NCBI GenBank assembly: GCA_902625895.1
Contig: CACODD010000004.1
Location: forward strand, 1 to 55,232
Length of the DNA stretch: 55,232 bases
Source of the DNA: an uncultured Alphaproteobacteria bacterium
Lineage (GTDB): Bacteria > Pseudomonadota > Alphaproteobacteria > Methylaequorales > Methylaequoraceae
Direction: 5' to 3'
The translations under genes were made by a program, and so were the position numbers. The notes under the pieces are model-generated. The model saw only the letters and a list, made by a program, of their open reading frames with translations, had not been told where the DNA came from and made no database searches. Position 1 is the stretch's first letter. Each line of letters opens with the position of its first letter. Below are positions 7,635 to 30,134 of the stretch, in pieces.

Positions 7635-8915
7635 ATGTATCATACAATTGTTATTGGTGGAGGATGCTTAGGCGCTGCAGCCGCTATTTCTCTCCAAAGA
7701 AAACTGAATAAACTCGGCAAAGGTGATAAAGTTTGCTTAGTAGAAAAAGCCGTTCTATGCGCAGCCGAGTCCTCTAGACATTCAGGTATTGTTAGGTCAG
7801 CAAATGCAGATCCTGATGCATCTATTATGGCATCCATGAGTTCTAAAATGTGGAAAAAACTCTCTTCGGTCTGGGGACTAGATATGGAGATAGATGAATT
7901 TGGTGCTATTTGGATAGCAAAGAAAAATTCAGACGGAGAAAACCCCGCATGGTCTGAACTATCCGACCGAATGAGCAAAATTCAATTAGTCTTCGAAGAA
8001 ATTGATACAAATTCAGCCACTCTAAAATGCGGTGAAACTTTACTTACAGACGAAAATGAATCGTATTTTTACGAACCAGCAGCATTTCAGTTAGATCCGA
8101 GCATTCTTCGGTCAACTCTTTACGATGCAATAGATGAGAATGGTGTCGTCTTAATGGAAAAAACTGAGGTTGATACGATTTTAACCAAAGGTAAAGAAAT
8201 AATAGGCATCACAACTAATAATGGAAAACTGGACGCTAAAAATTTTGTTAATGCAACTGGAGCCTGGAGCTCACAATTATTTTCAAAGATAGGGTTAAAA
8301 ATACCAGTCACAATTGAACCTGTTTCAGTTGTAAATTGGATGGAAAGCCCAAAACAGATTAGATACGAATATCCAATAGTAGCAGACTATACTAACCTTT
8401 GTTATTTCAGATCATGGAGAGGGAATAAAATGCATGCACACCAACCAAGGAAGAGATCTGTATATGAAATTGCTAAAAATTTTTTAAACGATCTTACATC
8501 CGTAAATGGTGGTGAATACCTTAATGAACCAATGAATCAGTCTCTTGCATATAACCAAATAAAAAATTATGAAGATATTTCAAAAAAAAGATTCTCGAAT
8601 ATCGATAAAACAGTATACGCTTCCGGTTACAGATCATTCTTCGATATTACACCAGACTTAAGGTTTATTTTAGGTAAAGACAGTAAATTCAATAATCTCT
8701 TCCATAATTTGGGATCAGGCCAAGCCATGAAGTATTGCCCAGTTTTAGGAGAAAGCATTGCAGAAGAAATTCTTAACGAATCAGATGTCACTGGAAAATT
8801 TGACTATAAAAAATTTAACATCAACAGATTCAGTGATGATTATATGAAGGACTTCTGGAACCTCGTTCAGGGAGAGGAAAACACACTCCATCGACAAGGT
8901 AAAAATACACTTTAA
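7635..8915 (+). CDS. FAD-dependent oxidoreductase, DAO/sarcosine-oxidase-beta family
   Basis: IVIGGGCLG Rossmann motif, ESSRHSGIVR, VNATGAWS and DITPDLRFILG. Confidence 0.85.
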   Translation: MYHTIVIGGGCLGAAAAISLQRKLNKLGKGDKVCLVEKAVLCAAESSRHSGIVRSANADPDASIMASMSSKMWKKLSSVWGLDMEIDEFGAIWIAKKNSDGENPAWSELSDRMSKIQLVFEEIDTNSATLKCGETLLTDENESYFYEPAAFQLDPSILRSTLYDAIDENGVVLMEKTEVDTILTKGKEIIGITTNNGKLDAKNFVNATGAWSSQLFSKIGLKIPVTIEPVSVVNWMESPKQIRYEYPIVADYTNLCYFRSWRGNKMHAHQPRKRSVYEIAKNFLNDLTSVNGGEYLNEPMNQSLAYNQIKNYEDISKKRFSNIDKTVYASGYRSFFDITPDLRFILGKDSKFNNLFHNLGSGQAMKYCPVLGESIAEEILNESDVTGKFDYKKFNINRFSDDYMKDFWNLVQGEENTLHRQGKNTL

Positions 8916-20899: not shown

Positions 20900-22084
20900 C
20901 TAGACTTTCTTAATTAGAAATTGGCCAACATTGATATTACCAGATTTAAAACCTCCCTCACAATATCCTAAGTAATAGTTCCACAGTCTTTTAAAACTTT
21001 CACTAAAACCAAGGCTTTTTATGCAGTCCCAAGAACTCTCAAATGACTCAGACCATATTCTTATTGTTTTAGCGTAGTCATTTCCAAACATTGTTTTATT
21101 TGTGATATGAAGGCCTTTAGATGTTATGACCTTATCCATTTCCTCTACAGAGGGAAGCATACCACCCGGAAATATATAAGTTTGGATAAAATCTGGAAAC
21201 TTTTTATATTTTTGAAAAAATTTGTCCTCAATTGTAATTGTCTGAAGCCCTATTGATCCGTCAGACTTTAAGTTTTTCTTTAGAACATCAAAGTATTTTG
21301 ACCAGTATTTTTCTCCAACTGCCTCAAACATTTCAATAGAAACAATTTTATCATATTTACCGTTAATATTTCTGTAATCTAGAAGTTTTACATCAACTTT
21401 ATCTGTGAGCTTATCATCGTATATTTTTTGCTTTGCTTTCTCATACTGTTTTTTTGAAATTGTAATTGCTGTCACATTTGCTGAGTATTTTTTTGCTAAA
21501 AAAGAAGAAAAACCTCCCCAACCACATCCAATTTCAAGTATTTTGTCATTTTCTTTGACACCCGTAATATTTGCAAGATTATCATATTTATTAATTTGAC
21601 CTTTAAGAAGGTTATCCTCAGGATTCTTAAACATAGCTGATGAATATGTCATTGATTCGTCTAACCATTTTTCGTAAAACGAGTTGCCTAGATCATAGTG
21701 AAAAGATATATTCTTTTTCGATCCAGACCTGCTATTTTTTTTTAAGTGATGCTTAAGCCTTAAATACAAAATGGTGAACCATTTTCCTCTAACATATTTT
21801 GAAAATTCATGAAAATTTCTTGCACCCCATTCAAGAAAGTCAGTGAGGTTTGATGTTTCCCAATTTCCATCTACGTAACTTTCAGCCCAACCAAGGTCAC
21901 CTCTTAAAAAAAAATCACTAATGCATTTCTCATTTAAGATTTTTATATTTGCATCAGGTCCCGCATGCTCTCCGTTAAAAGAAAATATAGACTTATTATC
22001 CTTATAAACATTTATTGAGCCGTATTTACTCTGTGCTAATACATTTAAAAATAAATTTAACTTACTTTGAGTGTTAAAAATCAT
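20900..22084 (-). CDS. cfa: CFA-synthase-family SAM-dependent lipid methyltransferase (UfaM-like)
   Basis: NISFHYDLGN, MTYSSA, LEIGCGWG, SIEMFEAVGE and YIFPGG motifs. Confidence 0.92.
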   Translation of the reverse strand: MIFNTQSKLNLFLNVLAQSKYGSINVYKDNKSIFSFNGEHAGPDANIKILNEKCISDFFLRGDLGWAESYVDGNWETSNLTDFLEWGARNFHEFSKYVRGKWFTILYLRLKHHLKKNSRSGSKKNISFHYDLGNSFYEKWLDESMTYSSAMFKNPEDNLLKGQINKYDNLANITGVKENDKILEIGCGWGGFSSFLAKKYSANVTAITISKKQYEKAKQKIYDDKLTDKVDVKLLDYRNINGKYDKIVSIEMFEAVGEKYWSKYFDVLKKNLKSDGSIGLQTITIEDKFFQKYKKFPDFIQTYIFPGGMLPSVEEMDKVITSKGLHITNKTMFGNDYAKTIRIWSESFESSWDCIKSLGFSESFKRLWNYYLGYCEGGFKSGNINVGQFLIKKV

Positions 22085-22090
22085 TAATTG

Positions 22091-22855
22091 TCAGCCCTCT
22101 GAAAAAAAATTTTTTGGTTTTTTTGGTTTTTTTATATATGTTGCACCCTTTACAAAAAGTTTCAAGGCTTCTAAGTGTATTGAAATTGTAACTTTGAAAT
22201 TTTGAAAAATATTACTAAAGAATATTCCTAAGAGATTTTTGTCATTCATTTCAACTGATCTTCCCTTAAACGATGCTTCGAAAATTTTTTGATTATTTAT
22301 ATTATAATTTATAAACAAATTCACGAAACTTCTATCAATATTGAAAGTAATAACATAATGGCCATTTATATTAAAAAAAGGAGAAACGTGAAATCTTTTT
22401 TTTACATTATTTTGTTTATTTATTTCACAATAATATGAGTGTCTTTCGTTGAATGTATTACTAACCTCATATATTATTGCAGTCGCTTTATTTTTATCGT
22501 CAAAACCGACAAAAACAGTTATTGGGTTAAACACATAACCTAAAATTCTAGGTAAACAAAAAGACTTAATATCATAAATATTTTTTTTGCCTTCTTTTAA
22601 AAATTTTTTTTTTAATAATTGATATGTGTTACTTGATTTTTTACCAACTTCTCCATGATCTTTGTCGTAGAATGAAAATAAAGTAAATCTATTTTTTTTA
22701 AAAAATTTATATTTGTGTTTAAAGTTCAATGAAAACCAAAAATAACAAAAACGATAAGCAAATGAATGAGTAAAAGGTTTATACCTTGTATGTGAAACAA
22801 TACCCTCAAATAAAGTATCGTTAATGTTGTTAATTTTTTTCATTGTTTTTTTCAA
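22091..22855 (-). CDS. DUF1365 family protein (UfaO-like)
   Basis: HTRYKPFTHSF, PRILGYVFNP, EVSNTFNERHSY, FHVSPF and IHLEALKL motifs. Confidence 0.9.
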   Translation of the reverse strand: MKKTMKKINNINDTLFEGIVSHTRYKPFTHSFAYRFCYFWFSLNFKHKYKFFKKNRFTLFSFYDKDHGEVGKKSSNTYQLLKKKFLKEGKKNIYDIKSFCLPRILGYVFNPITVFVGFDDKNKATAIIYEVSNTFNERHSYYCEINKQNNVKKRFHVSPFFNINGHYVITFNIDRSFVNLFINYNINNQKIFEASFKGRSVEMNDKNLLGIFFSNIFQNFKVTISIHLEALKLFVKGATYIKKPKKPKNFFSEG

Positions 22856-24086
22856 ATATTCTTTTCACAACATGCAACGCGGAAGTAATTCCGTCCTCAT
22901 GAAAACCATAACCTAGGTATGCTCCACAAAACCATATGTTTTTGTTTCCTTGTATTGTTGTTATTTTTTTTTGATTTTCAAATGTATTTAAATCAAACAA
23001 TGGGTGATCATAATATATTTTTTTAAATATTTTTTCCTTAGAAGGTAAAATAGAGGGATTAAGAGAAACAAAAATATTTAAACTAGTATTCAGTTTTTGT
23101 AGTTTATTCATCCAATATGTAACGTTTACTCCCCTTTTATTAGTTTTATTTTCAATATAATTCCAACTTGACCATGCTTTTCTAGATTCTGGCATTAGTT
23201 TTTTGTCAGAATGTACATAAACCTTATTTTTGGTATACCTTATATCTTCAAACATCTTTTTTTCTTCTTTTTTTAAATTGATTATTTTTTTTACCTGATC
23301 TGAATGAACTGCAATTACAAGATGATCATATTCTTTTTTTTTACCGTTCACATTGAGAAAAATTTTATTTTTTTTGCTATATAAGAATTTTACAGAACTA
23401 TTTTTATAAGCTGAGATATCTTTTGACTCAAGAATTTTTTCAACATAATTTTTACTTCCATCTAAAACAGTTCTCCATTTCGGGCGATTAATAATTTTAA
23501 GAAGCCCGTGATTTACAAAAAACATTACAAACTTCTCAAATGGATATTTTTTTATTTCATTGATTTCTGAGGACCAAATACTTGCTGCCATCGGGTAAAG
23601 ATGTTTGTATTTGTAATAGTCAGAATAGTTTTTTAAATCCAAATATTCTTGAATTGTAGAATTTTTATATTTTCTAATATGCTTTTTAGCTAACAAATTA
23701 AATGTAACAATTTCACACAACATTCTCCAAAAATTAAAATTCAGTAAATTTTTCTTTTGAGAAAATAATGATGATAAATTAGTTCCTGAATATTCGATAT
23801 TTTCAATCTTATTTGAAACGGCAAAAGACATATCACTTTCATAAGATTTAACATTTAACTCCTCAAAAAGATTGCATAGATTTGGGTAATTAATTTCGTT
23901 GAATACTATAAAACCAGAGTCAACATTAATATTTTTCCCTCTATGTTTGATTGTTTGCGTGTGAGTATGTCCACCAAAATAGGAGTTTTTTTCAAAAAGA
24001 TCTACTTTATAACTCTTAGACAAATAATACGCACTTGATAGACCTGATATACCACTACCGACTACAGCAATCTTAAAATTCCTCAT
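22830..24086 (-). CDS. NAD/FAD-dependent oxidoreductase (UfaD-like)
   Basis: VVGSGISGL, GGHTHT, VDSGFIVFN, AWSSWNY, TYWMN and GYGFHEDG; upstream of DUF1365 and cfa. Confidence 0.9.
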   Translation of the reverse strand: MRNFKIAVVGSGISGLSSAYYLSKSYKVDLFEKNSYFGGHTHTQTIKHRGKNINVDSGFIVFNEINYPNLCNLFEELNVKSYESDMSFAVSNKIENIEYSGTNLSSLFSQKKNLLNFNFWRMLCEIVTFNLLAKKHIRKYKNSTIQEYLDLKNYSDYYKYKHLYPMAASIWSSEINEIKKYPFEKFVMFFVNHGLLKIINRPKWRTVLDGSKNYVEKILESKDISAYKNSSVKFLYSKKNKIFLNVNGKKKEYDHLVIAVHSDQVKKIINLKKEEKKMFEDIRYTKNKVYVHSDKKLMPESRKAWSSWNYIENKTNKRGVNVTYWMNKLQKLNTSLNIFVSLNPSILPSKEKIFKKIYYDHPLFDLNTFENQKKITTIQGNKNIWFCGAYLGYGFHEDGITSALHVVKRIFEKNNEKN

Positions 24087-24141
24087 AAAATAATATTATG
24101 AGAAAAAAAAGGAAATTAAACAAAATAAATCAATATATTGT

Positions 24142-24170
24142 TTGACTTTCAATCTTTATTACTATATATT
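24142..24170 (+). promoter_or_regulatory. Near-consensus sigma70 promoter
   Basis: TTGACT (24142-47), 17-nt spacer, TATATT (24165-70). Confidence 0.7.
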
Positions 24171-24176
24171 GATACT

Positions 24177-24302
24177 GGACTAGTATGATAATAACAAAAT
24201 TTTGTGCAATAACATTCTCATCAATATTTTTGTTACTACTAGTTTCAAGTCTATTTTAATTTCCTCCAATAAAACCCTAGTTTACTAGGGTTTTATTGTT
24301 TT
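24177..24302 (+). ncRNA. Candidate small RNA or small-peptide mRNA
   Basis: Bounded by a sigma70 promoter and a perfect hairpin with a U-rich tail; contains an internal long imperfect hairpin, a CCTCC motif and a 24-codon ORF at 24185-24259. Confidence 0.5.
24267..24302 (+). terminator. Intrinsic terminator, probably bidirectional
   Basis: Perfect 14-bp inverted repeat CAATAAAACCCTAG-TTTA-CTAGGGTTTTATTG followed by TTTT. Confidence 0.85.
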
Positions 24303-24469
24303 CTGTAAATTGATATCCAATGAGTTGAAAGACATTTAATGTCTAAATTTTCTGATGTTCCCGAAGTTAGTAACTCCGAGGTATTATAATTTTCAAGATC
24401 CTTTTTAAATGAAAAACTAGATTTACTTCTGTTTCTGTCAAATCTGAGATTATGAATTAAGTTCAACAT
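24293..24469 (-). CDS. Small hypothetical protein (58 aa, not in ORF track)
   Basis: ATG...TAA open frame MLNLIHNLRFDRNRSKSSF...LSTHWISIYRKQ; fills the gap and ends in the terminator stem. Confidence 0.4.
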   Translation of the reverse strand: MLNLIHNLRFDRNRSKSSFSFKKDLENYNTSELLTSGTSENLDIKCLSTHWISIYRKQ

Positions 24470-24505
24470 AACAATTAAAACGACATACCGTAAAAATGTT
24501 TAGTT

Positions 24506-24820
24506 TTATCTTAATAAGTGTTTTCTAAATTCACACACAGCTGTAAAATAAGGATCATCTGATCTTGGTTGAGTTGATAGTACATTTCTTCTAATATCAC
24601 AGTTTTCTGCAATCATTGAATTTAAAAGATGTCCTGCGTTCTGAAAACCTGAATGAATTGCAATAAATAAATTATCTGAGTTTTTGCATTTAGCCAAATC
24701 TTCTTTTATTTTTCCATCAGATGTATTTTGATTGTAAACAACTTTGCACCAATGAGCAGAAAAGGTTTCATTTGAATATGAACTAAAAAAAAAAAATACG
24801 AGAAAAAGAATTATTTTCAT
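24506..24820 (-). CDS. Secreted four-Cys hypothetical protein
   Basis: Signal peptide and four Cys residues; start overlaps the PAP2 stop. Confidence 0.7.
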   Translation of the reverse strand: MKIILFLVFFFFSSYSNETFSAHWCKVVYNQNTSDGKIKEDLAKCKNSDNLFIAIHSGFQNAGHLLNSMIAENCDIRRNVLSTQPRSDDPYFTAVCEFRKHLLR

Positions 24821-25599
24821 ATAAATATCCTCCAGTACATTAACTTAAAAAGATCAATAAAAGAAAAATTATGTTTTTTTTTTATTTTCTCAATCTTCTT
24901 TTTAAAAAATTTATCATAAAATAAAACAGGAACAATAGATCCTAAGTAAGCGCCAGCAACTAAATCACTTGGAAAGTGCATTGACATAAAAATTCTCGAT
25001 AATCCCATCATTGTTGCTATTAATATGATAATAAAAAAATACCCTCTTAAATAAATTATAAATAATAGAGCCAAAGAAAATGCTGCTTGAGTGTGTCCTG
25101 ACGGAAATGAGCTTATTTTGTGCTCAAAATTAAAAAAATTAAATCTTTCATATCCCTCTAAGAAAAAATATTTAGGACGTGACACTCCAAATATATATTT
25201 AAGAATATTACAAATTATTCCAGCAGCAGCTAAAGAAAAAATAAAATGTTTAGAAACTAACGAAATATAAGTAAAGAGGTCTTCAATCTTCTCTCGATTG
25301 TAATTTGTCTTATCTTTAATTACGGAAAACTTCTTCTTGTCATTCAAAAGGGAATTAACATTTAAATTTACAAATAAAATCAAAGAAAACAAAATAATAA
25401 AATTTAATGGATCCAAAATATCAGAAATTGGATCGATGACCTGCTTAAAAAAATAAAAAATTAGTCCTGGAAAAGATCTTGATAATTCAAATAAAAAAAT
25501 ATCAAGGAAATTAAAAAAAATTAAAATTATTAAAAGTAGACAAACGAAAAGTCTAACTGAGGTTAAAAAATTAAGGTATTTTAAATCTTTAACTATCAA
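24817..25599 (-). CDS. PAP2 phosphatase, LpxE-like
   Basis: All three PAP2 motifs are present: KYIFGVSRP, PSGH and SRIFMSMHFPSD. Confidence 0.9.
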   Translation of the reverse strand: MIVKDLKYLNFLTSVRLFVCLLLIILIFFNFLDIFLFELSRSFPGLIFYFFKQVIDPISDILDPLNFIILFSLILFVNLNVNSLLNDKKKFSVIKDKTNYNREKIEDLFTYISLVSKHFIFSLAAAGIICNILKYIFGVSRPKYFFLEGYERFNFFNFEHKISSFPSGHTQAAFSLALLFIIYLRGYFFIIILIATMMGLSRIFMSMHFPSDLVAGAYLGSIVPVLFYDKFFKKKIEKIKKKHNFSFIDLFKLMYWRIFI

Positions 25600-27200
25600 T
25601 TTTTATAAACCTTAAAAAAAACATTTTCACCTTTTGAATAATTGAAACCTGTAAATTCTTCAATTAGCAAAAAATCGGAAAAATTTTTATTATCTTTTAT
25701 ATTTTTACTTATAATATCAGTAACAATAAGTAAAATTTTTTCTTCTTTCTCTTTCTTGTAGCCCAAAATACTTGATGAATTTGAAGATTTATGTGAGGTT
25801 AGAAATAGTAAACTAGGTTCATTGAAACCAACTGTAAAGATTTTTTCAACACTGCTCTCGTGTTTGTTAATTATCATATTTATTCTATCTGAAATCCACA
25901 AAACCTCCAATCTTGGTAAGAGAAAAAATATTAAAACAAAGTAAGTAAAGATTTGAAAACATCCAGAGGAAATTAATACTGATTTAATCTTTTTTTTTAA
26001 AGTTTCTTTCAAAAGAAACAAAGTAAGGATTAAATATAAAATTATAATAAACACTAAGTTAACGTCAAATTCCGAAAACTGATGTATTGAAAATATAATC
26101 AATGAAATTATCGTCAGAGGAAATAATACAATTGGAAATAATGAAAATTTCAATAACTTTTTGTTGTAATCACATTCATCAATAAACTTTGCAACTAAAA
26201 TACTTAATGGAAGGTAAGCAGGATATATGTAATGAGGTAATTTAGTTGGAATTAACTCGAAAACAACTAAGGGAAAACAAAAACTAATTATGAGATAAAG
26301 TAAAAAGTCGTCCTTTTTAAGGATATACTTAAATCTTTCTTTCATTTGTAAAAAAAGGTTAATTATAAAAATAGACCCAGGCCAGAAAAAAATAAAAAGC
26401 AGTAGTGAATAATACCCTGGAGGAAATCCATGTGACTCCTGACCTGACTTAACTTTATTGAATAAATCGTTGCCGACAGACTCATACCAAAAAGCACCTC
26501 CTGATTTAATGTTTATCAAAACAAACCATGGAATTGTAATCAAAAGCAAAAGAATAAATCCAAAACCTGACCAAATATTTTTAATAAAATTGCGTTTTCT
26601 TAAAACTGAAAAAATTATTAATGGAAAAAATGTAAAAATTATTATGATAGGTCCTTTAATTAAGATACCGAAAGACATCGCAATCCAAAAAAATATTTTA
26701 TTAGGAAAACTCAGGTTTCTAAAATTTACGAGCTTGTAGATTTTCAAGTTGCATATTCCTATAAATAAGAAAAGCAAACCATCAGTTTTTGCCTGGTGAA
26801 TTTCAGATATTGTTAGAAAAGAAAAAATTAAAAAAAATACAGTCAAGAATGCTATTGATTCATTTTCAATATTCCTAATAATTACAAAAATTAAAAAGAA
26901 GCTTATAAAAACTCCTAATATCGATGGTAATCTATATATCGAAATTTTATCGTACGGATAACTTCCAAAAATTGAATTCATTAACGATTGCGTCCAATAA
27001 ATACCTATTGGCTTTTTATATCTTTTTTCTTCTACCATTTTTATGTCAATAAAATCCTTATCAATTAACATTGTTTTAGACGCAGTTGCAAAACGTGCTT
27101 CGTCTCTATCCATTACTGGGAGTTTAAAAATCCCCTGAAGATAGATTAAAAAACAAATAAATAAGAAAAAAAGAAATCTTTTATTAAAAGAAATATTCAT
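25596..27200 (-). CDS. ArnT/GT83-like lipid A glycosyltransferase
   Basis: DRDEARF, KKPIGIYW, LIKGP and TKLPHYIYP motifs; polytopic membrane protein. Confidence 0.9.
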   Translation of the reverse strand: MNISFNKRFLFFLFICFLIYLQGIFKLPVMDRDEARFATASKTMLIDKDFIDIKMVEEKRYKKPIGIYWTQSLMNSIFGSYPYDKISIYRLPSILGVFISFFLIFVIIRNIENESIAFLTVFFLIFSFLTISEIHQAKTDGLLFLFIGICNLKIYKLVNFRNLSFPNKIFFWIAMSFGILIKGPIIIIFTFFPLIIFSVLRKRNFIKNIWSGFGFILLLLITIPWFVLINIKSGGAFWYESVGNDLFNKVKSGQESHGFPPGYYSLLLFIFFWPGSIFIINLFLQMKERFKYILKKDDFLLYLIISFCFPLVVFELIPTKLPHYIYPAYLPLSILVAKFIDECDYNKKLLKFSLFPIVLFPLTIISLIIFSIHQFSEFDVNLVFIIILYLILTLFLLKETLKKKIKSVLISSGCFQIFTYFVLIFFLLPRLEVLWISDRINMIINKHESSVEKIFTVGFNEPSLLFLTSHKSSNSSSILGYKKEKEEKILLIVTDIISKNIKDNKNFSDFLLIEEFTGFNYSKGENVFFKVYKN

Positions 27201-27251: not shown

Positions 27252-27959
27252 ATGAAAAATTTTAGTATAATCATACCAATTTATAACGAATCTGAGTCAA
27301 TATTTGATTTAATCAAAGAAATACATTCTGAATTTAAAAAAAACACTCCTGAATTAATTATAGTTGATGATGGAAGCAATGACGATTTCTATCAACAAAG
27401 AGCTGAATTGAAAAAGTTAAAGGTGAGAATTCTTCGACACAAAAAGAATCTTGGAAAATGTAGAGCGATGTTAACTGGTATCTCAAATGCAAGAAATAAT
27501 TTAATTTGTATTATGGACGGAGATGGACAAAACCCTCCATATGAAGTTAAAAAAATGATTGCCTTTTGGCGTAACTTATCAAAAAAAGAACAAGATAATT
27601 CGCTTATATGTGGAAATAGAAAAATAAGAAAGGATACCTTAATAAAAAGATTAAGTTCAAAAGTTGCAAATACTATAAGAAAATTTTTACTAAAAGATGA
27701 TTGTAATGACACAGCATGTGCTTTGAAAATTTTTAATCGTTCTGATTATTTAAAAATAAAATATTTCAGGAATATGCATCGATTTCTTCCTGCACTATTT
27801 AAAATGAACAGTTGTAAAATATTTAATGTTCAGGTTGACGATAGATTAAGATACAGTGGCGTATCAAAATATTCTTTTAATAATAGATTTTGGGTGGGTA
27901 TTATAGATTTAATCAAGGTATATTTTTTAATAAAAAAAGGAGAAACAAATGGAGACTGA
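27252..27959 (+). CDS. GT2 polyprenol-phosphate glycosyltransferase (ArnC/DPM1-like)
   Basis: IIPIYNE, VDDGSND, MDGDGQNPP and MHRFLP motifs. Confidence 0.9.
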   Translation: MKNFSIIIPIYNESESIFDLIKEIHSEFKKNTPELIIVDDGSNDDFYQQRAELKKLKVRILRHKKNLGKCRAMLTGISNARNNLICIMDGDGQNPPYEVKKMIAFWRNLSKKEQDNSLICGNRKIRKDTLIKRLSSKVANTIRKFLLKDDCNDTACALKIFNRSDYLKIKYFRNMHRFLPALFKMNSCKIFNVQVDDRLRYSGVSKYSFNNRFWVGIIDLIKVYFLIKKGETNGD

Positions 27960-28865: not shown

Positions 28866-30134
28866 AAATTCTCTAAAAAAATCGATTTCTGTATGCTTCT
28901 CAAATTTACTCTTTGACCAAATTATTTGTCCAAATGCACTACAATTCTGACAAGTTAGTTGCCATTCTTTTTTTTCAGAATTACATGTTGAGCACTTCCA
29001 TTTTGGATCTGCTATAATGATTCCATCATCATTGAAGGACTTTGGCTCTTTAGTTTGTTCTGAGATCTTTTTATATAAACTAATTACTCGATGATCTCTT
29101 TCGGTCTTTCTAATTTGATCGAGATATTTCTGAGCTTCACCCCAAATTTTTGCTTCAAAACTTGCAAATGCTAAGCTCAACTTAGTTTCATTTGATTTCT
29201 CGTTAACATGTTTTTTTAAAGTTTTAACAATCAGTCTATATCTTTTCAAGGCTTCTTTTTCTCCTTGGGCCTTATACTGCATGAAAGTTTTAATAATATC
29301 AAAACATAGAAGTTGACTCCATGTTTTGCTCAACACTCCAACAGCTTTTTTTAAATTTTGCTTATCTATGTAAAATTTTATAGTTTCGTTTACTACTGGT
29401 ACAGATTGATTAGATAATTTATATGCATCTAAAGCTTCACCTCCAATTAAAATCTTTAGATTAGCTAAATTACTTCTAAGTTGGTTTGGAATTTTTTTTA
29501 AATTATTGATCGTATCATGAGCGAGCTTCCAGTTTTTTTCAAATGCATAAATTCTCGACAACTTTTCATGAAACCAGATATCATCAGGATACTTTTTACA
29601 TAAATTTAAAAGAGCAACTTTTGCATCTTTTTGATTGTTATTTTTTAAGAACAAAACTATTCTTCCTCTTTCAGCAACATATTGAGCCCTAGGAATAGAT
29701 TCCAAAACTCTCAAGTATTTCAATGATTCATTAAGATCGTTTTTAATAAGAGAAGAATTAAAAAGCATAAAGGCAGTAAAAAAATCATTTTTCAAATACT
29801 TTTTAAGCATTCTAGAATTTTTTTCTATGTTACTTGAATCCCCTGTCAGAAGTGCACCAGCAATGTTGTCCAAGCTCTTGTTTGCCAATTGAAGATATTT
29901 TTCATTTCTTTTACTACGAAAGTTTTTAGGTATATTTTTTATAGATGTGAAGGTATATATGACAATTAGAATGGTTGATAAAACAACAACAAAAATGAAT
30001 AAAAGGCCTAAAAGGTTAGTCTCAAAAAAATAATTTTCCCAAAATATTTCAACTTTTCCAGGATTTTCAGACAACCAAACTACAACGGTAGAAGTGAATA
30101 TTAAAATTAGAAAAAGTTTCAAAACTCTAATCAT
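28818..30134 (-). CDS. hemY: HemY-family TPR membrane protein
   Basis: WLSENPGKVEI N-terminal domain, TPR-like body and C-terminal CxxC...CxxC; downstream of hemCD. Confidence 0.8.
   Translation of the reverse strand: MIRVLKLFLILIFTSTVVVWLSENPGKVEIFWENYFFETNLLGLLFIFVVVLSTILIVIYTFTSIKNIPKNFRSKRNEKYLQLANKSLDNIAGALLTGDSSNIEKNSRMLKKYLKNDFFTAFMLFNSSLIKNDLNESLKYLRVLESIPRAQYVAERGRIVLFLKNNNQKDAKVALLNLCKKYPDDIWFHEKLSRIYAFEKNWKLAHDTINNLKKIPNQLRSNLANLKILIGGEALDAYKLSNQSVPVVNETIKFYIDKQNLKKAVGVLSKTWSQLLCFDIIKTFMQYKAQGEKEALKRYRLIVKTLKKHVNEKSNETKLSLAFASFEAKIWGEAQKYLDQIRKTERDHRVISLYKKISEQTKEPKSFNDDGIIIADPKWKCSTCNSEKKEWQLTCQNCSAFGQIIWSKSKFEKHTEIDFFREFLQNPLRHLPQMKREN

Follow-up and report, generated by a model that had tools for sequence, protein, structure and literature searches.

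A conserved 24-codon gene for a predicted membrane micro-protein, with a structured mRNA and an NrdR-type operator, in a family of marine alphaproteobacteria

What is encoded in a 419-bp intergenic gap between two minus-strand gene blocks of an uncultured alphaproteobacterium? We investigated this question in a 55,232-nt stretch of DNA (hereafter the window; G+C content ∼29%), for which a preliminary description had proposed an unannotated plus-strand transcription unit producing a small RNA (sRNA) and/or a 24-aa hydrophobic peptide. The unit proved to be real. Its promoter, its fold and its open reading frame (ORF) are all conserved among relatives, and 24128-24305 (+) is confirmed as a self-contained, strongly conserved transcription unit. 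Judging from the sequence, it appears to be chiefly a protein gene and not a plain sRNA, and a single 24-codon gene is under three layers of constraint: on the protein, on the mRNA fold and on an invariant, exposed stretch of RNA. The genes on the two sides of the gap are as follows.

20900-22084, minus strand: cyclopropane-fatty-acid synthase, in the same operon as the amine-oxidase-like gene
22091-22855, minus strand: DUF1365 gene, in the same operon as the amine-oxidase-like gene
22830-24086, minus strand: FAD amine-oxidase-like gene, start of this minus-strand operon on one side of the gap
24506-24820, minus strand: ORF, end of the second minus-strand block on the other side of the gap
24817-25599, minus strand: PAP2 phosphatase, second minus-strand block
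25596-27200, minus strand: glycosyltransferase, second minus-strand block

A leader peptide or transcription attenuator was considered and rejected, since the genes that come next, at 24293-27200, are exclusively minus-strand and the first plus-strand gene starts at 27252.

Scanning the DNA for promoters and terminators returned 23 promoter-like sites, against 33.3 expected in shuffled sequences, and one terminator, against 1.1. Promoter and terminator alone are therefore not beyond chance, and the case for the unit rests on its conservation in relatives. A blastn search with the gap sequence hit 34 of the 36 other family genomes and none of 24 taken from the class's other families. A covariance model was then trained on 30 copies; it matched 36 of the 42 genomes of the order, which consists of this single family, and did not match any of 149 class members placed in other families. 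The element is present in all nine high-quality genomes of the order (at least 90% complete), and most matched genomes carry one copy (33/36, with two in the remaining three). An exact 26-mer scan of species genomes returned 33 loci, all from uncultured marine alphaproteobacteria, in records labelled Pelagibacteraceae or Rickettsiales. The carrier lineage is an order-level group of small, AT-rich marine alphaproteobacteria, perhaps the HIMB59-type group. The parts of the unit, some of them predicted, are listed below in order.

24128-24143, no strand assigned: putative NrdR box 1, AATCAATATATTGTTT, with 6/6 conserved positions in 33/33 unique copies
24142-24147, plus strand: −35 hexamer TTGACT, found by the scan; TTGAC[AT] is invariant in 33/33 copies
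24144-24158, no strand assigned: linker between the boxes, 15 bp long in 33/33 copies
24159-24174, no strand assigned: putative NrdR box 2, TTACTATATATTGATA, with 6/6 conserved positions in 33/33 copies
24165-24170, plus strand: −10 hexamer TATATT, lying in box 2
24177-24178, plus strand: predicted transcription start, 7-8 nt past the −10
24178-24244, plus strand: long 5'-terminal hairpin, with stems P1 (24178-24185/24237-24244) and P2 (24191-24204/24222-24233)
24185-24259, plus strand: short ORF for the 24-aa peptide MIITKFCAITFSSIFLLLLVSSLF and its stop codon, frame kept without indels in 32/32 unique copies
24248-24275, plus strand: invariant stretch AGTCTATTTTAATTTCCTCCAATAAAAC / AGUCUAUUUUAAUUUCCUCCAAUAAAAC, 28 nt with UUUCCUCC, spanning the last codons, the stop and the 3' UTR
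24267-24305, both strands: bidirectional intrinsic terminator, a 14-pair stem with a T-rich tail on both strands
24293-24469, minus strand: convergent 58-aa ORF (MLNLIHNLRFDR...WISIYRKQ), with its stop codon in the 3' arm of the hairpin

The preliminary description had treated the peptide as an optional part of the unit; the coding signal is instead its strongest feature, and the 24-aa ORF is genuine. All 32 unique copies have an ORF of the same length, free of stops and indels, while indels do occur in the terminator loop. Frame 0 contains no stop in any of the 32 unique coding sequences; three of the other five frames are interrupted in all 32, and the remaining two in 7 and 12. On the minus strand, every frame contains stops in at least 12 of the 32 copies. 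A minus-strand ORF at 24180-24269 was discarded because it has stops in relatives. Variable columns fall on codon positions 1/2/3 in the numbers 16/7/19, second positions varying least, and the alternative codons comprise 28 synonymous and 38 mostly conservative non-synonymous changes, compared with 50 and 157 among all possible single changes. Amino-acid replacements are confined to the I/L/V/F/M or S/T/A/G classes, and at codon 12 four distant copies show a switch from one Ser codon family to the other (TCA/AGT). The peptide of the most distant genera reads MYITKIGVISLGSIFLLLLVFSLF, which shows that Cys7 is not essential. We also scanned metagenomes with an anchor on the promoter and ATG only, which returned 57 loci. 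Of their downstream stretches 53 are unique, and 12 of these were too short to assess; 37 of the 41 assessed encode a peptide of 23 or 24 aa, and the other four are unrelated chance matches.

The first ATG is replaced by ATT in four of the 32 unique copies and by GTA in one, and in four further copies the ATG stands one codon later. Little or no Shine-Dalgarno sequence is seen in most genera, a purine-rich GGAG preceding the start only in some. The copy with GTA at codon 1 (L004; G007:C13, ∼29951-30089, from a close relative, in a region 95% identical) additionally carries the non-conservative changes T4A and S13P, and these changes may reflect gene decay in that genome or an assembly error. 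The peptide has a short N terminus with Lys5 followed by 19 hydrophobic residues, a layout with which it should insert into the membrane as a single helix. Its exact 24-aa sequence is absent from a collection of ∼15 billion proteins; a gene of 24 codons is of the kind that gene callers miss.

The start of this ORF is held in an RNA hairpin. As the preliminary description had claimed, a long imperfect 5' hairpin (24178-24244) encloses the ATG of ORF 24185-24259. The RNA 24177-24306 is predicted to form this hairpin, an open stretch and the terminator, with a minimum free energy of −29.4 kcal/mol (z = −4.71; 0/200 shuffles fold as well). Across 30 copies (two of the 32 unique copies contain N and were excluded from the fold statistics), 99.1% of the 960 pair cells of the consensus fold are standard pairs, and sliding the partners along the fold lowers pairing to 35-55%. 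The search for covariation among relatives suggested with the original proposal came out in favor of the fold: seven pairs have changed on both sides, and none of 500 shuffles reaches the observed pairing and covariation. P1 is 99.6% paired, with three pairs changed on both sides. It begins at the predicted 5' end, takes in the first base of the AUG and has codons 18-20 as its partner, and it is still paired where those codons change, its first pair being GC in 12 copies, GU in 11 and AU in 7. About 70 cells of the fold are G-U pairs that would be A-C on the opposite strand, so the RNA is the plus strand. Since the AUG is held in the long hairpin, translation is probably limited or conditional.

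At the other end, the 14-pair terminator hairpin reported earlier is present at 24267-24298 and is followed by TTTTCTGT. Its upper stem covaries, one pair being GC in 18 copies and AU in 12 and the next GC in 16, AU in 9 and UA in 2; its loop is variable among copies. The hairpin serves both directions, since its 3' arm carries the stop codon of the conserved convergent ORF. Homologues of this unannotated ORF stop inside the hairpin at 30 of the 33 unique loci, and their divergence is protein-like. The exact 58-aa sequence is absent from the protein collection, and Pfam has no family for this ORF or for the ORFs of 104, 129 and 124 aa. A comparison of 24080-24520 with Rfam gave a lowest E-value of 0.71, all matches scoring far below gathering (at best 19.9 bits against a gathering score of 50 bits), and the Rfam search of the whole window returned no match at gathering scores. 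In the portion covered of a structured-RNA survey of Pelagibacter, none of the motifs occurs in a comparable context (PMC2704228), and the portions covered of the literature on NrdR, small RNAs, Pelagibacter, HIMB59 and SAR11 small proteins contain nothing on the element.

We then considered what controls this gene. A sigma70 promoter, TTGACT-17-TATATT, is present at 24142-24170 (+) as proposed, with 10/12 matches, and the form TTGAC[AT]-17-TAT[AG]TT is found in 33/33 unique upstream stretches. In the alignment, two invariant palindromic blocks flank a variable spacer. NrdR sites are described as two boxes of 16 bp in which C4, A6, A8, T9, T11 and G13 are highly conserved, separated by a linker that is normally 15-16 bp long and whose sequence is unconstrained by NrdR (PMC13584703); they are described as often overlapping the RNA polymerase site (PMC9110341). 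The two boxes of the micro-protein gene keep 12/12 conserved NrdR positions and the 15-bp linker in 33/33 unique copies, box 1 ending within the −35 and box 2 containing the −10. Outside the −35, the linker varies among copies. TTGAC[AT] is invariant although it lies mostly in a linker that NrdR leaves free, which argues for a plus-strand promoter. As far as sequence tells, a canonical NrdR operator with two boxes overlaps the promoter.

A loose published NrdR regular expression (PMC12051234, section 4.6) finds 27 pairs in the genome against 29.6 in simulations. It is not specific in this AT-rich genome, so a strict core and the six conserved positions were used. The strict pair, CWATATATWG-N19-23-CWATATATWG, has a single occurrence in the 968-kb assembly and none in the reversed control, and the operator is the best-scoring pair in a weighted genome scan. 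NrdR itself is encoded in the genome (TIGR00244, 177 bits against a cut-off of 124.65 bits), with its Zn-ribbon and ATP-cone domains, and 38 of the 42 family genomes carry nrdR, including 9/9 high-quality ones. The genome encodes a class I reductase whose large subunit, NrdA, shows no ATP-cone, so that, in what was searched, the system has no ATP-cone sensor other than NrdR.

The nrdA promoter provides a comparison within the family. In 30 family loci its layout is the same: box 1 is weaker and is fused with TTGACA, the linker again measures 15 bp, and box 2, TTACTATATRTWGTGT, is conserved. The micro-protein operator is predicted to be a better NrdR site than that of the genome's own nrdAB promoter. 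One such nrdA promoter (G000:C22:7960-8051, locus L060) lies directly 3' of a tRNA gene and has a degenerate box 1. A second strong box pair, with a 16-bp linker, was found at G000:C15:7902-7949, ending a few bases upstream of the start of a 129-aa ORF (7952-8341; locus L059/L131). In the 23 loci examined, the regular expression finds this pair in 15, and in the other eight it is visible with one deviating position. The 129-aa ORF is conserved and basic, adjoins umuDC and occurs in 29 of the 42 genomes of the family. A structure model of its product has a mean pLDDT of 64.5 and a pTM of 0.33, values too low to support a fold search. We also observed three flagellin-like ORFs in a row at G000:C18:9594-12942, on a contig assigned to this very small genome, with a moderate NrdR-like pair between two of them. 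The NrdR targets described are reductase operons, the only non-reductase target being topA of Pseudomonas aeruginosa, which has a single NrdR box and is activated (PMC4409342).

A LexA/SOS reading of the palindromes was rejected, since lexA, recA and umuD carry GAAC-N7-GAAC instead. The classical alphaproteobacterial SOS boxes, GAAC-N7-GAAC or GTTC-N7-GTTC, stand before lexA, recA and umuD (G000:C9, C14, C15). Seen from the divergent amine-oxidase/DUF1365/cyclopropane-synthase operon, the operator is also an upstream element, at a distance of 41-87 bp, and it could act there too. From a weak TTGTTT-17-CATAAT at 24095-24123 (−), transcription of the amine-oxidase operon would begin at its ATG or beside it, giving a leaderless mRNA; no Shine-Dalgarno sequence stands before this ATG. 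The tie to the adjacent lipid and photo-oxidative stress genes that had been suggested was not supported: we found no link, and the promoter has an operator of NrdR type.

The reading that we favor, and consider rather probable, is a single-gene operon encoding a 24-residue single-pass membrane micro-protein, controlled by NrdR and induced by dNTP shortage. How NrdR would bind and when induction would occur are drawn from the published mechanism, starting from the observed gene, fold and operator sequence. In the presence of dATP and ATP, NrdR is described as forming a tetramer that binds both boxes, and with ATP alone as forming non-binding oligomers (PMC9110341). By extension from the NrdR literature, the tetramer with dATP and ATP would occupy both boxes and block the micro-protein promoter. 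When deoxynucleotides run short, NrdR would leave and the gene would fire together with nrdAB, so the published mechanism predicts that micro-protein mRNA should rise with nrdAB at dNTP shortage. The mRNA, of ∼125 nt, would have its translation restricted by the 5' hairpin and would end at the terminator common to the convergent gene. Metatranscriptome contigs from four runs in four studies cover 24139-24317, 24188-24435, 24101-24301 and 24177-24328; they carry no strand information and no true ends. Their depth (2-5) is similar to that of the flanks, and together they cover 24101-24435 piecewise, 23986-24078 being covered by none of the four. Two contigs begin before the predicted start, and one continues past the terminator. 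The contig beginning at 24177 is a weak hint in favor of the predicted start.

By analogy with SidA, the small division inhibitor of Caulobacter, our preferred guess is that the peptide acts at the membrane as a brake on, or modulator of, division or another membrane process in replication stress, although we think even this guess rather unlikely to be right. A wider proposal, which we also regard as doubtful, is that the NrdR regulon is not reductase-specific and commands a dual-function RNA and a second, 129-aa protein, the peptide and/or the anti-Shine-Dalgarno stretch coupling dNTP supply to division, membrane function or translation. If true, this would amount to a replication-stress checkpoint run by NrdR, and not by LexA, in an Hfq-less, streamlined marine lineage.

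We further considered whether the RNA does more than encode the peptide. Its CCUCC lies at 24263-24267 in a stretch that is unpaired up to 24266, in agreement with the claim that this stretch is single-stranded, and the stretch is also invariant. All of 24248-24275 is unchanged in alignment A1, including the synonymous sites of codons 22-24, and the most distant genera show only single changes in it. Furthermore, TAATTTCCTCCAATAAAACC / UAAUUUCCUCCAAUAAAACC is present in 37/37 peptide-bearing metagenome copies, which had not been selected for it. The complement of the stretch is an ideal ribosome-binding or translation-initiation region. Such conservation appears to mark a second, RNA-level function, and the exposed stretch could mask ribosome-binding regions in trans. 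Nine viral contigs (L218-L226, IMG/VR) share a 21-22-nt word with it; in seven of the nine viral contigs sharing a 20-mer, the opposite strand reads GGAGGAAATTAAAATG, a ribosome-binding site with a start codon. These contigs were rejected as carriers of the gene, of which they share this word only.

The RNA might then be dual-function, coding for the peptide and also pairing through AGUCUAUUUUAAUUUCCUCC, before the terminator, with the Shine-Dalgarno regions of other mRNAs. This would extend the NrdR-controlled micro-protein operon and does not exclude it; we hold it as a tentative possibility. Beyond the invariance of the stretch at synonymous sites and in the 3' UTR, its unpaired state in the consensus fold and the nature of its complement, two leaders speak for such pairing. 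When the exposed stretch was ranked against 947 ORF leaders of the window's genome, the best predicted target was the leader of an aldehyde dehydrogenase, complementary over 13 contiguous bases. The nrdA leader TAGGAAATT, conserved in most of the 30 aligned loci, is complementary to UAAUUUCCU, part of the 3' UTR of the micro-protein mRNA. Against this, nrdA ranks only 556/947 in the duplex ranking, and in the 23 family loci compared, GGAGGAA is all that the dehydrogenase leader retains, the flanking complementarity shifting from side to side. This is the pattern that any strong ribosome-binding site would show, and the dehydrogenase was rejected as a specific target on that ground. AGGAAATT occurs near the starts of ∼12 candidate leaders, including nrdA, which is suggestive only. 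Target prediction, one of the checks named with the original proposal, thus yielded no specific target among the 947 leaders. Hfq (PF17209) was found in 0/42 family genomes, including 0/9 of those at least 90% complete, which counts against an Hfq-dependent sRNA. This result and the lack of a match to any Rfam family, those of the alphaproteobacterial CCUCC-seed sRNAs mentioned in the preliminary description included, speak against pairing in trans. Of the novel base-pairing or dual-function RNA envisaged in the preliminary description, the unpaired and invariant stretch stands, and a dual-function RNA is a tentative reading.

The unit was also likened to a type I toxin, with an antisense RNA silencing the folded mRNA, by analogy with damage-induced membrane toxins. 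The very small hydrophobic peptide, the start codon placed in a stem between the 5' end and the interior of the ORF, and a stress-type operator all fit this reading, as does a weak minus-strand promoter-like sequence, TAGACT-16-AAAAAT (8/12), that lies within the ORF and is kept in 26/33 copies. That sequence is low-scoring, however, and lies where coding and folding already constrain the DNA; such weak minus-strand sites are all that was found for an antisense or antitoxin RNA. Moreover, type I systems are usually patchy and multi-copy, whereas this gene is single-copy (33/36), nearly universal and fixed in its neighborhood. We consider the toxin reading improbable. A non-coding sRNA with an incidental ORF is very improbable: the RNA structure is strongly conserved and 5/32 unique copies (four with ATT, one with GTA) lack a canonical start in either of the first two codons, but the coding substitution pattern, the switch of Ser codon, the fixed length and the freedom from stops in all copies contradict it. 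We give almost no credence to the absence of any plus-strand gene, in which the hairpin (holding the stop codon of the convergent 58-aa gene) would end the minus-strand operon and the palindromes (with boxes upstream of the amine-oxidase start and a weak TTGTTT-17-CATAAT that could drive a leaderless mRNA) would serve the divergent lipid operon, given that the G-U pairs fit the plus strand only, that the plus-strand ORF is conserved and the minus frames are stopped in at least 12/32 copies, and that an invariant TTGAC stands 17 nt from TATATT.

How does the NrdR-controlled micro-protein operon compare with known systems? NrdR is treated as a repressor specific to ribonucleotide reductase genes in the work considered here (PMC13584703, PMC12051234, PMC9110341, PMC4409342). 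A perfectly conserved, better-than-native NrdR operator before a micro-protein gene would widen its regulon, and the operators of the micro-protein and the 129-aa ORF point to an unknown response to dNTP shortage in an abundant ocean lineage with very few regulators. The NrdR operators of nrdAB, nrdDG, nrdHIEF and nrdJ, as described, consist like the present one of two partly palindromic 16-bp boxes with C4/A6/A8/T9/T11/G13, and share with it the free 15-bp linker, the overlap with the polymerase site and the presence of NrdR in the genome (PMC13584703, PMC12051234, PMC9110341). Unlike in the reductase operons, the gene behind the operator is a 24-codon ORF. SidA of Caulobacter crescentus, described as a 29-aa, SOS-induced inhibitor of division in the inner membrane, resembles the micro-protein in being alphaproteobacterial, of similar size, membrane-bound and under a repressor that senses trouble in DNA synthesis (PMC4211646). 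The micro-protein would differ from SidA, which is under LexA, by its NrdR-type boxes; the likeness is one of description, and a division target is conjecture.

Other likenesses concern the RNA. In the type I toxin genes tisB and dinQ, a damage-responsive operator precedes the coding region of a hydrophobic peptide shorter than 30 aa, and the mRNA is folded over its start. The gene described here has the small hydrophobic peptide, the hidden start and a stress-type operator in common with them; unlike them, it is a single-copy gene of the lineage's core genome. In CCUCC-seed sRNAs of the CcsR and CuxR/alpha-r14 types, an exposed C/U-rich anti-Shine-Dalgarno motif is repeated in loops. A similar exposed C/U-rich motif stands just before the terminator of the micro-protein mRNA, but here the CCUCC is single and the RNA is coding, matches no Rfam family and belongs to an Hfq-less lineage. 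The three layers of constraint on protein, fold and exposed stretch make the locus a compact test case for dual-function RNAs. Altogether, we would class the unit with the known stress-regulon membrane micro-proteins encoded on structured mRNAs, from which its NrdR-type control would set it apart.
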